Below, piece after piece: positions 41,901-47,900 of a stretch of 64,000 bases of DNA. Source of the DNA: an uncultured delta proteobacterium (GTDB lineage: Bacteria; Desulfobacterota; Zymogenia; Zymogenales; Zymogenaceae); contig CAVTLK010000005.1 in the NCBI GenBank assembly GCA_963735595.1, forward strand, positions 320,001-384,000. Reading direction: 5' to 3'. Position numbers: made by a program. Each line of letters opens with the position of its first letter. Within the stretch, counting starts at the first letter, position 1.

Positions 41901-44900
41901 TCCTTGCCCCCGCGCAGCTCGTTGTGTTTCATCTTTTCCTGCGGCGGGCGATGCCGCAGCCGAAGGCCCCGTCGGGCGGCGGGCTCGATCGAACGCTGAA
42001 GAAGAGGATATTCACTTTCTGGTACAAGCTGCTGGCTATCAGCCTCATCGACGTCTTCGTGTTCGAAAAGTTCGAGGTATTCTTTCTGAACATCTACGCC
42101 GATTTCAGCGCGGTTGCGTTCTATACGATCGCGTTTTCCATTTCGGCCAAGGTTATGAAGCTTATCCCCTATTCGCTGACAAACATCATGCTCCCGATAT
42201 TTACCGAGAAGCACTCGATCGGCGATACCAAGGGCAAGCATACGGTTTATACCTATTCATTGAAGTACCTGTTTATCATCATCGCCCCTATCTTTGCCGG
42301 CGGCGTTTTCATTTCGACGGAGTTAATCACGAACCTTTACGGGATCGAATTTAAACCCGCGGCGGACATCTTCTGGATTACGCTGCTTTCGTCCTCGATG
42401 GCGGCCTTTTTCGGCTCTTCGGCATCCCTTTTAAGCGCCATGGAGGAACTATCCGTCCTCCTGACCATAGGTATTGTAAGCATATGTCTGAATATCGGGA
42501 TGGATCTGCTGCTGATCCCCCGCTACGGTATACACGGCGCGGCGTGGGCTAACCTCATCGGGCAGGCCTTCGGCGGGATAGCGATCTTCATATTTATCAT
42601 CATAACCCTCAAGCCGAAGATCCCCTGGGAGGACCTGTTGAGGATCGCCATCGCGTCGGTCATCTGCGGCCTGGTTGCCAAGGCCGTCATTACGATCAAC
42701 GGCGGCCTCAGCTTCATGGTGCTGGCAATCGCGGCGGCGGCCCTTGTTTACCCGGTTGCCCTCGCGCTGGCCGGGGCGCTGGGTGCCGGCGATCTTGAGA
42801 TACTCGCCGCCGCCGAGAAGCTGCTGCCCGCCCGGCTGCGGGCTCCGTATCGGTTCTGTACCCTGATGCTCACGCGCCTGATCAAGAGGCGGGTATAGGA
42901 TGAATACGGGAAACGCGGGCACGTGTATCAGCGGAACGCACCATATAAAAGGTGTTGACAAATATAGTTAAGCTGCTATACTATCCCCATGTTGGACGAC
43001 CTTGAAAGGTTCGAGATACTCACCGACGAGGTTAACCGCCTCATAGCGCGGGTCCAATCCCTTCATACGCCCAACTTCGATTTCGGCACTGGGATACCGT
43101 TGTATCGCGCCGAGATTCACACTATTGATATTGTCGGTAAAAATCCGGGGATCAACGTAACCCGGCTTTCCGAACGTATCGGGGTCACCAAAGGCGCGGT
43201 TTCCCAGATGCTGACAAGGCTTGCCAAAAAGAAGCTGATAGAAAAAAGGGCGGTATCGGGAAACGAGAAGGAACGCATGATCGAACTGACCGGCCTCGGG
43301 CACCTGGCTTATGAAAATCACCGGACCCTTCACCGCCATATCTTTACGTTCCTCCAAAACCACTACGGCGCGGCGCTGCCGTCGCGGCTCGAACGGTTTC
43401 AGGAAGTGGTCGGTGAGCTTTCGAAAATCCTTTCGACCGTAGAAGGGCATAAGGATACGGTGTAATTTTTTTCGGTACTTAATTTAGCAGCTAAACAATA
43501 AGCAGATAGGGAGGGATACAGTGACCGGGAAAAGAGATACGGCCGCGGCGCGTGGTGGAAAATATTCCATCTGTCCGTGGTGGCTGGTGAAGTCTTTCGA
43601 TAATTTCCTTCGGCCGCTCGTTCATGACTCCCGGAAGCTCTTTGGCCCGTACGTCCGGCCAAATATGACGGCCGTCGATGTCGGGTGCGGGCGGGGGTTT
43701 GCCTCCCTCGGGCTCGCCCGGTTGGTCGGCGGCGGCGGAAATGTGATCGCCGCCGATCTCCAGCCCGAGATGCTCGAAATGGTGAGGAATCGGGCGGAAA
43801 AGAACGGACTCTCCGAACGGATACTGACGCACCGGTCCGCTCAGGGCAGGATCGGCGTTACGGGGCCGGTCGATTTCGTCCTCGCATTCTGGATGCTGCA
43901 CGAGGTGCCGGACGCCGCGGCGTTTTGTGCGGAGGTATCGGCGATGCTGGCGCCCGGCGGCCATTTCTTTGTGGCCGAGCCGCTCTTTCATGTGACGCAG
44001 CGCGGTTTCAAGGAAATGACCGAGGTTGCCGGCGCGGCAGGTCTGGCCGTTTTCGAGCACCCGCGCGTTGCCCTCAGCCGGGCGGTGGTATTCACGAAGA
44101 AGAAAAGGAGAAAGGAGGAATAAATTATGAGAAGCGAACAGTCACCTAAGGGCGGCGTCGTCGCCGCGGAAGGAACGCTCTACCTGGGGGTCGGGCGCTA
44201 CATGATTACCATTCCGCCGTGCCTGATGAGGATGGGGGCCGCCGGAAGCGCCCGGCAGGCGGATAAGCTGCTGGCCCGTTTGTCCCCGGAACACCACCTC
44301 GTTCGGGATTTCGTCGTGACCGAGATCCCGAGAAAGGCGGCGTCTCTCTCCGCGGACTACATCGCGCATCAATTGGACCTTCCCATTGGACGGGTTCGGG
44401 ACATCGTTGATGAGCTCGAAAAGGGGAAGGTGTTTCTATTCAGGAATGAGCGTGGTGAGGTTACCTGGGCCTACCCGGTGACCGCAGAACCGACGCCGCA
44501 CCACGTGACGTTCAGCACGGGCGAGCAGATCTATGCGGCCTGAGCCATCGACGCCTTGGCGCTGCCCTTCGTGCAAGGGCAATTGATAAAACGGCCGCTC
44601 TCGTTCGTCATCAGGAGCGAATGCAAGAACAGTGGAGACCCCATCGAGATTGCCATCGACAGCGACCTGCGATACCGGGTCGCCGACGAGCAAGGCGGCG
44701 TGAGGGTGTTCGTCCCGATGGTGGACGTGATAACGCTCGACGAGCCCAGCATCATCGATTCCTTCTGACGACGATCGGTGTTCTTCCGGTCGGAAGAAGA
44801 CGCGAAGAAATACCGTCGTGCCTGCAAGGGGGTTAAGGGCCTCTACCTTACGCTCGACCATGGCGTATATCTCACGAGGGTCATCCAGTCGGCAATCTTC

Positions 44901-47900
44901 GCTTTCTCGAAACGTGCCCGGTGAGGGATCTTTTACCCGGCGAATCCGGGTTGAAGGGAGATACCTCGTTTGAAAACAGGGGCGGCTTCCCAGGAGGGGG
45001 GCCGCCCCGATTGTTTTATGCCGTAATGGTGAGGTACCTTGCTTCATGCCCGTCGGCCCGAACCCGGACTCGATGGGGGGCAGCCCCCTCTCTTCGGACT
45101 TTCCCTTTTTGCGTTGACAAAAAGCCGCCTTCCTTTATAATGAAAAAGAGCCCAATGCGGTACATTATTCCGATTTCGTTGTCATATCATTATGTTCCTT
45201 TGTATGCCGGGGCCCGTGCGACGGGCCGACGGGGCGGCGCCGATACTGGCGATACGGGCGATACAGGCGATACGGGAAGTCACAGCCGAAATGGACGCTA
45301 CCGATAGAAAGATCCTGAAGGTTATCCAGGAAGCGTTCCCGCTGACCGATACCCCCTTTTCCGACGTGGCCGGTCCGCTGGGGCTTGCCGAGGCCGAGGT
45401 TATTTCCCGGATCGCGGCCCTCAAGCAGGCCGGCGTTATAAGGCGCATCGGGGCGGTGCTTGATGCGCGGTCGCTGGGCGTTGCCACGATACTGTGCGCG
45501 ACTCGGGTGGACCGGGAGCGGATCGAGGAAGCGGCAGCCGCCGTCAGCTCATTTCGTCAGGTCACGCATAACTACGAGCGGGATGGGGATTACAACCTCT
45601 GGTTTACCGTCTGGGCGCGGGACGAGGACGAGCTGGACCGCACCATCCGCGATATCGAGGGAAAAGCCGGGATCTCGGTCATACGCCTTCCGGCGGTCGA
45701 GACCTATAAGATCAGGGCGGTCTTTGACCCGTCCTGAGGAGTTCGCGGTCCGACGCGGTTCTCGTCGTAATGGGCGGGGAATGATCACGTATAAAGTTGC
45801 GGAGCTGACCGTTGTCACCGAGGATACGATCGAGGAGGCACTTAACCGGCACGTTCGGGACGGATGGCGGCTCGATACGATACAATTTGCCATGGGGCCG
45901 GCAAGTAAGCGGCCCGCGATGGCCTTTATCCTTTTTATAAGGGAAGATCACAATGACGACAACGCTCAAGAAGGCTGATCTCACACACCGGCTGCTGGCG
46001 CGCTTCATTGACTTTCTGATCGGCGCCGCCTTCTGCCTCGTCCTGTTTCCGGTGGGGGTACTCGCGGGGGCGACCTATATCGCGATCGCCGACGGCCTGT
46101 TCGGCGGGCAGAGCCTCGGAAAGCGAATCATCGGGCTCAAGGTCGTCCGCGTGGCCGACGGCGGCCCGATCACCTTCAAGGATTCGCTGATCAGGAACTC
46201 GATGTACGCCGTCATCTATCTCTTCTATCTCATCCCTTACCTCCGGTGGGTCCTGATCCCCACGGTCGGCCTGATCATCGTCGGTTTTGAGGTCTACTAC
46301 CTCATCGTTGACACCAACGGGTTCCGGGTCGGGGACCTGGCGGCCGATACACGGGTCATCGATGAGCCGGCCCGTTTGTGATCCGCGCGACGGTGCGGGC
46401 ATTCTTGCCTGCGTAATATCCCGAAGCGGGGCGACGACGACGGGACGGCTCAAACCGGCCGCGGCGTCTCTGATACGCCGGGGTAACGCGGCCTCTGTTC
46501 AGGCAACATACGGCAGGAGGATATATACATGTCTCAGATTCCCACGCCAATCACGACGCCTCCGGATGCGGCCGAGCTTGCCGACAGGCTCTCGCGGGTT
46601 CGGGCGCTCATGGAGCGCGAAGGCCTTGATTACTACGTCTCCTTTGACCCGGTCAATGTCTACTACCTGACCAATTTTGCCAACAACGTCCACGAGCGGC
46701 CCTTTATCCTGGTCATCGGCAGGAAGGGCGCGCCGGTCATGCTCTGCCCGCTTCTGGAGACGAGCCACGTCAAGGCGCGCGCCCGGTGCGAGCTCGAGTA
46801 CGTCACCTATTACGAGTTTCCGGCGCCGGCCGAGCAGAACTGGTTTGACCTCTACGCCACGCTCATCCCGGCCAAGGCCCGGGTGGGGGTGGAGGAGGCC
46901 ATGCCGGTCGGGATCGCCCATCGGACCGGCGGGGTCGTCGTGGTGACCGATATAATAGACGAGGTCCGCCTGGTCAAGACCGACTACGAGATCGGCCGGT
47001 CGGTGCACGCGTCGGCAGTCGTGAACTTCGGTCACACCAAGCTCCTGGAAGTGACCCGTCCCGGCGTCCTGGAGATCGCCATCTACGGCGAGGTGGTGCG
47101 GGCCATGATGGGAAAGGTGCTCACGGAGATCCCGGAGGCAAACCTGATCGTCTCCCGCTTCGTGGGGGCGGTGTGGCCCCCCTCGATATCACACGACCCG
47201 CACCGCGTTCCCACGCCCTACCTGCCGATGGAGGAAGGCGGGCCGCACGTCTCGATCGTGACGGCCCAGGCCGACGGCTACGGGATGGAGATGGAGCGGA
47301 GCTTCTTCCTCGGCGGCGTCCCCGAGGACGCCCGAGAGCCGTTTGCCGTTATGATGGAGGCCAGGGAACTGGCCTACAAACTGGCGAAACCGGGGGCCGT
47401 ACTCTCGGATATCGACCGACGGGTGCGCAAGGTGATTATCGACGCGGGCTACGAAAAAAATATCCTGCACCGGACGGGTCACGGGCTGGGGATAACCGGC
47501 CACGAGGCGCCCTACCTCGCCCTCGGGGACGACCGGAAGCTGGAGCCGGGGATGCTCATCTCTATCGAGCCGGGCATCTATATCCCGGGCAAGGGGGGCT
47601 TCAGGCATTCGGATTCGGTCCTGATTACCAAGACAGGAAACGTGAGGCTCACCGAGGCGCCGGACGGCCTCGAACAACTGACGATCGCGGTTTAGACCGC
47701 CATCGAAGGGATATCACCTATGAAGAAAGAAGGATACATCGCCGGAGTTTACCGTCGGCGGGCGCCCGGCTGTCTTCACGCTCGTCGTCGTTACGATGCT
47801 CTATGTCGTCAACTACATGGACCGCATGGTGCTGTCGGCGACGTTACCGCTCATCAAGGCCGACCTGATGCTTTCCGACGCCCAGTGCGGCTGGCTGGGG

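Follow-up and report, generated by a model that had tools for sequence, protein, structure and literature searches.

Does the stretch from 44127 to 44924 on the plus strand of the window, the 64,000 nucleotides of delta proteobacterial DNA analysed here, encode a single MerB-fold protein with selenocysteine (Sec, U) at both catalytic sites, and what would such a protein do? The reading frame opens at an ATG at 44127, preceded by an AGGAGG ribosome-binding site, and closes at the TGA at 44922-44924. It encodes 265 amino acids, rather than the ~230 given in an earlier note on this locus; most homologues have 247-258. Two internal TGAs, at 44541-44543 and 44766-44768 (both +), share the frame of this ATG, as had been claimed, and the motifs around them read exactly as reported, YAA-U-AID and DSF-U-R. 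They correspond to residues 139 and 214, so that the two sites lie 75 residues apart, each followed by its own in-frame hairpin. By reading frame and phmmer alignment (E 4e-4), U139, D142, C166 and U214 correspond to MerB C96, D99, C117 and C159, in agreement with the assignment of Sec to the C96 and C159 equivalents and the retention of D99 in the earlier note.

Relatives of the gene were collected from several sources. The count of 25 carriers in 401 genomes of the phylum, given previously, holds for matches at E<1e-50, which have TGA at both sites in 25/25 cases; with all matches included the number is 34/401. A scan of species-representative genomes with one pattern returned 252 relatives among 366 pattern hits, and the best 80 of the 252 were kept for locus analysis. 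All of these 80 loci carry the signature U, D, C, U at the four positions, including the equivalents of D142 and C166. By record title they comprise 41 Chloroflexota, 29 deltaproteobacteria/Desulfobacterota, and 10 others from Bacteroidota, Gemmatimonadota, Rokubacteria, Binatia, Spirochaetales, Margulisbacteria and unassigned lineages. The proposal of a stand-alone family in Desulfobacterota thus stands as to its being stand-alone, but not as to its limits, as the range includes Chloroflexota and other phyla. Carriers made up 25/401 genomes of the window's phylum versus 2/301 in a Chloroflexota sample (centre genome included). With 8 duplicates removed from 105 loci, 97 distinct family genes were available for comparison. 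A metagenome scan seeded with relatives bearing Cys at site 1 gave a further 80 loci from a sister subclade, of which 64 distinct genes could be parsed (57 U/U and 7 C/U, the latter having Cys at site 1); the rest were 10 duplicates, 4 loci outside the pattern with U at both sites, and 2 that end before site 2.

The hairpins after both TGAs, noted earlier, are present. The putative first SECIS element (44563-44581, +) is a 7-bp stem with a 5-nt loop that begins 26 nt past the UGA and carries G at loop position 2; its assignment draws on the fold, on frozen synonymous codons and on conservation. Its folding energy (-10.0 kcal/mol) is by itself no better than that of shuffled sequences (z -0.8 to -0.9). 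The second (44781-44798, +), assigned by conservation and fold, has a 7-bp stem and a GGTC loop 19 nt past the UGA, and none of 200 shuffles folds as well as this region (z -3.2), although a longer alternative stem gives the top-scoring fold in this genome. According to the bSECIS model as given in PMC13188914, loops span 3-9 nt, lie 16-37 nt from the UGA and carry G as their first or second nucleotide. Both hairpins agree with this description, with loops at 26 and 19 nt, so the suggestion that the first departs from a strict pattern does not extend to the published model. A 7-bp stem with a GGTC loop 18-20 nt past a TGA occurs after only 2 of the 109,980 TGA triplets genome-wide, one of them 44766; because the pattern was derived from this gene, the count speaks to rarity and not to function.

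Hairpin 1 is intact in all 97 family genes and in all 57 sister-subclade genes with UGA at site 1 (154/154), versus 0/7 genes with Cys at site 1, these seven coming from few lineages only. Hairpin 2 is intact in 97/97 family genes, in 55/55 complete sister U/U genes and in 6/7 of the genes with Cys at site 1. Two-sided changes are seen in both stems: C-G is replaced by U-A in SECIS 1 of 19/57 sister genes, and the closing pair of SECIS 2 among the 97 genes is U-A in 85, C-G in 11 and U-G in 1, with no mismatches. At ten conserved codons within the two hairpins, a single codon accounts for 97% of the usage, compared with 54% for 76 other conserved codons in the same 97 genes. The UGA sites also align with Cys in homologues, namely C96 and C159 of MerB, site 1 of the seven Cys/Sec relatives, and site 2 of two proteins (P0026 and P0029). 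The genome encodes tRNA-Sec, selB, selA and selD, the last with an in-frame TGA of its own, and a selA match was found in 70 of the 75 carrier genomes tried (25 phylum carriers and 50 of the best 80 named loci).

Could the TGAs be true stops, so that the locus is a pseudogene or a set of two to three small genes? Public gene calls for most database relatives do end at the first UGA, a frameshift interrupts one close relative near its 5' end, and in another a second copy is split. Against this, the same two TGAs in a core free of other internal stops recur in 80/80 loci (best 80 of 252) from at least eight phylum-level groups, one locus being 5'-frameshifted, and the protein sequence stays conserved past each UGA. 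Hairpins that show two-sided changes and disappear where Cys replaces Sec, together with the genome's own Sec machinery, also speak against stops. We consider this explanation refuted as far as sequence can refute it, its remaining probability being minute. Both in-frame UGAs are very likely decoded as selenocysteine, and we are close to certain that SelB binds each hairpin and that Sec is inserted twice into a single 265-residue chain. The double selenoprotein of the earlier note is thereby upheld, with both TGAs at MerB Cys equivalents. As a separate observation, three full-length database records show Trp at both sites, consistent with a gene caller that uses TGA=W.

The protein was compared with MerB (EC 4.99.1.2; PDB 3F0O, 3F2G and 1S6L; MerB2, 5C17; Pfam PF03243). 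It shares the fold, the Pfam family and the D99 and C117 equivalents, and its score for PF03243, 69.8 against a gathering score of 27, is a clear pass. The NCBIfam MerB models were not reached (NF009710, 53.9 versus a cut-off of 193; NF033555, 52.1 versus 200), and no model of NCBIfam release 20 is passed by the 265-residue protein. The earlier description of weak, below-cut-off matches is therefore correct for the NCBIfam SaoL and MerB models but not for Pfam. Identity to MerB is only about 20-30%, an extra N-terminal hairpin (residues ~18-30) lies outside the aligned part, and the protein lacks an equivalent of Cys160, which MerB has. The canonical MerB signature as described by Christakis et al. 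(PMC8261052) is Cys96 and Cys159, whereas this gene has TGA at both positions and the encoded protein Sec at both. In contrast to MerB, with its mer operon and MerA partner, the window gene has neither. No merA over the cut-off was found in this genome, the best hit lacking the C-terminal cysteine pair, and only 1 of 75 carrier genomes has one when the top 18 candidates per genome are scored. Neither merT, merP nor merA occurs among 269 flanking genes (139 upstream, 130 downstream) of the best 80 of 252 loci, a scan based on rough gene calls with long genes cut to 450 residues.

The closest described system is SaoL (NF040728), in Haft and Gwadz (bioRxiv 10.1101/2022.07.06.499078) a single-Sec family with a CU motif that belongs to the SAO system. 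By that description, SaoL and the window protein are both MerB-like, carry Sec at the Cys159 equivalent, keep Asp99, occur in anaerobes and are truncated in databases. SaoL has one Sec, in its CU motif, and Cys at 96; the window protein has an FU motif and a second Sec at 96. The score against NF040728 is 60.3, below the cut-off of 140, and local identity to three SaoL-type proteins is 26-32%. SaoC and SaoB, the 2 of 9 SAO families tried, were not found in this genome, which is 93% complete, and both were detected in a SaoL-bearing control. Instead of the nine-gene SAO neighbourhood, the gene is flanked by marR, a methyltransferase gene and ahbA, in line with the earlier statement that no sao operon was seen in the 3.6-kb loci. 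Among the 401 phylum genomes, SaoL exceeds its cut-off in 3, versus 25 for the double-Sec family. In a quick maximum-likelihood tree, a long branch (SH-aLRT 99) separates the family and its degenerate paralogues from the three SaoL-type proteins (100), from a second double-Sec clade (99) and from plasmid MerBs. The distinction from SaoL thus bears out, in model score, in well-supported tree groups and in one- versus two-Sec motifs, and the protein is a member of the MerB superfamily that is, by its defining sequence features, neither canonical MerB nor SaoL. The Cys-at-site-1 forms are scattered within the family and require at least four changes, so site 1 has likely reverted to Cys several times; site 2 is more stable in the tree, although its residue in 5/10 rows is judged only from the record end.

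Other double selenoproteins have been described. MbdU (NF045648), the methyltransferase/UXPK-star protein (NF047649) and the UxxU metal-binding protein (NF041115) likewise have two Sec per chain, but as those models are described none is MerB-like. In the window protein the two Sec are expected to come together at a single active site. A search of the literature for MerB with selenocysteine found SaoL alone, and in Table 1 of a 2026 inventory of 119 selenoprotein families, including those credited to Haft and Tolstoy 2025, SaoL with its one Sec is the sole MerB-like entry.

Three genes form a unit on one strand, the MerB-like gene coming last. A candidate sigma-70-type promoter ahead of this unit (42955-42982, +; TTGACA-16-TATACT with a TG extension) matches the consensus at 11/12 positions; the scan gave 4 sites in the region versus 1.2 in shuffles, and promoter function is presumed. 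A MarR-family regulator of 158 residues without cysteine follows (42989-43465, +; open reading frame with Pfam MarR_2/MarR above cut-off), and this MarR likely controls the three-gene unit. The second gene (43521-44123, +) encodes a class I SAM-dependent methyltransferase of 200 residues and ends 3 nt before the MerB-like start. It adjoins the MerB-like gene only in the two closest relatives among the best 80 of 252 loci and is a lineage-specific neighbour. A candidate intrinsic terminator with a 13-bp GC-rich stem (44979-45008, +) closes the unit, and a separate, perfect promoter consensus at 45114-45141 would serve ahbA, identified by NCBIfam (143.5 against a cut-off of 140). What is constant across the family is a regulator next door. 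Among the 24 other phylum loci, a related MarR lies upstream in 9 and a MerR-type gene adjoins in 4, which confirms that such regulators are frequent neighbours; a MerR-type neighbour occurs at 11 of the best 80 of 252 genome loci, AraC or TetR at a few, and at 41/80 metagenome loci there is a small protein that weakly resembles ribbon-helix-helix proteins. The recurrent MerR-type protein lacks the Hg-binding cysteine set and falls far below the MerR, CueR and ZntR cut-offs. We did not find hgcA in this genome; it occurs in 13/25 carriers versus 105/376 non-carriers and is not commoner in carriers within the three countable families.

What reaction might the protein catalyse? MerB acts on organotin or organolead. 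We give an even chance to the proposal, made from sequence, that the protein cleaves carbon-metal bonds of organomercurials or similar soft-metal alkyls or aryls by MerB-type protonolysis, the name lyase being suggested by the conserved triad. In MerB, as described in PMC10114901, the organomercurial is held by C96 and C159, the carbon receives its proton from D99, and Hg(II) is taken off by MerA. With D99 kept in every member and both ligands raised to selenium, the reading we favour is unchanged chemistry with tighter capture. The Sec139 selenolate would take R-M+ from a cell thiol, Sec214 would give the metal a second ligand, Asp142 would protonate the carbon so that R-H leaves, and M(II) would remain bound as Se-M-Se. 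Selenols are ionised at neutral pH, so Asp142 would draw its proton from water and not, as in MerB, from the second residue, and substrate would be captured at lower levels. Hg-Se bonds are very strong, which makes product release a problem for the lyase. Since there is neither MerA nor a Cys160 equivalent, sulfide or small thiols would have to take the metal away, or else turnover would be slow. The hypersensitivity of E. coli expressing MerB without merA, described in PMC10114901, also counts against a lyase, as do the scarcity of merA (1/75), the lack of mer neighbours, the non-metal regulators, the lack of hgcA here and the low identity to MerB. With merA so rare and no metal-sensing regulators, mercury is not established as the physiological substrate, and methylmercury in that role is possible though doubtful.

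The missing MerA, the missing C160 and the non-metal regulators leave room for two other readings. One, which we think unlikely, is that the protein binds Hg(II), methylmercury or a different soft metal (Cu(I), Ag, As(III)) with high affinity, as a trap or chaperone. Its two selenolates would keep the metal bound almost permanently, protecting the other selenoproteins of the cell, and would turn over once at most. The near absence of MerA to unload product (1/75 carriers, top 18 candidates per genome) fits such a role, as does the lack of Cys160, which PMC10114901 links to Hg hand-off; by the same account MerB D99S binds Cu(II), and Haft and Gwadz (bioRxiv 10.1101/2022.07.06.499078) point out that having Sec at the metal site might alter the substrate. 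However, Asp142 is kept in 97/97 genes, as expected of a catalytic acid, the adjoining regulators are not metal sensors, and two Sec per bound ion would be costly.

Similarly improbable in our view is a diselenide-cycling enzyme on a repurposed MerB scaffold, which would reduce or cleave a carbon-halogen, S-S, Se-C or peroxide bond of an organic electrophile, Asp142 giving the proton and thioredoxin-type systems re-reducing the Sec pair. What counts against it is that a MerB site is made for bridging a metal, not for a direct bond. The kinds of regulator found upstream (MarR, TetR, AraC and cysteine-poor MerR) usually sense organic molecules or redox stress, and scattered neighbours encode nitroreductase, GST, flavodoxin/FMN reductase, DsbA-like and CMD proteins, but no partner reductase is conserved among the flanking genes of the best 80 of 252 loci. 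A CxxC at residues 166-169 in 82/97 distinct family genes would suit redox chemistry, yet this genome's copy has Ser at 169. Also in favour of this reading, redox enzymes make up most bacterial selenoproteins as listed in the 2026 inventory.

Collectively, the locus represents a widespread, uncatalogued family, shortened by gene callers, that, judged by sequence, likely cleaves bonds between metal and carbon with the customary mercury-resistance genes missing. It is a large addition to the bacterial selenoproteome, with 252 relatives in one pattern scan versus the 52 SAO loci that Haft and Gwadz (bioRxiv 10.1101/2022.07.06.499078) report for SaoL across 15,511 genomes, the two numbers coming from different collections. 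It would also be the first case of a MerB-type site whose two metal ligands are both selenium. Its Cys/Sec relatives can act as controls in what amounts to a natural experiment on sulfur versus selenium in carbon-metal bond cleavage. Surveys for merB, as described by Christakis et al. (PMC8261052), filter on Cys96 and Cys159 in the called protein, so a double-Sec family is invisible to them, and, according to a review of demethylation, a strain that carries out anaerobic 'oxidative' demethylation has yet to be isolated; such genes have thus likely been missed, and this one is a concrete gene to test. A speculative and rather unlikely proposal is that anaerobic bacteria of sediment and soil have in this family a hidden methylmercury demethylase that works independently of MerA, its di-selenolate site cleaving methylmercury present in traces and leaving Hg(II) behind. 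If true, part of the mer-independent demethylation in anoxic settings, long unexplained, would have a gene to account for it.

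The alanine codon immediately 5' of the first UGA lies at window positions 44538-44540. In the window gene's family, all 88 genes with alanine at this position use GCC or GCT, and GCA or GCG occurs in none of them. Irregular copies were seen in two close relatives of the window gene. The gene at locus L002 (genome G217) has a one-base frameshift near its 5' end, and a second gene copy in genome G247 (contig C7) is split; both may be assembly errors. Elsewhere in the window, the middle part of an ABC-permease-like ORF (49763-50998), which we take to be LolC/E-type, is out of frame, a pattern that suggests either compensating frameshifts or sequencing indels.

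Two selenocysteines are also predicted in a second MerB-like clade, represented in the phylum genomes by loci L229, L232, L233, L235, L243, and L245. Here the position of MerB Asp99 is occupied by glutamate, the spacing from the UGA to the first hairpin differs from that in the window gene's family, and the clade branches separately in the tree. Members of both double-selenocysteine clades occur together in at least one genome (G169), and about 10 further genomes have a second match of similar kind. The full-length paralogues P0030, P0031, P0038, P0070, and P0091 have neither cysteine nor selenocysteine at site 1 and mostly lack the aspartate as well, while retaining a CxxC near position 166; they are possibly non-catalytic derivatives.

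Within the sister subclade, a conserved unnamed protein of 85-100 residues is encoded near the MerB-like gene in 41 of the 80 metagenome loci (for example, L178:1388-1648 and L209:3072-3476). This protein gave no Pfam match, and RHH_4 is found on 14% of one Atlas cluster.

More distantly, the MerB-like gene L030 (genome G110) has UGA at both sites and glycine at the Asp99 position, and its first hairpin is positioned as in the window gene's family, with a two-sided base change. Additional MerB-like genes (L223, L224, L227, L228, and L133) combine a cysteine codon at site 1 with UGA at site 2. In the members with inspected DNA, a hairpin-like stretch lies in the same downstream codons that hold SECIS 2 in the window gene and in SaoL-type genes. 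On this basis, predicted selenocysteine at the C159 position occurs widely across the MerB superfamily.
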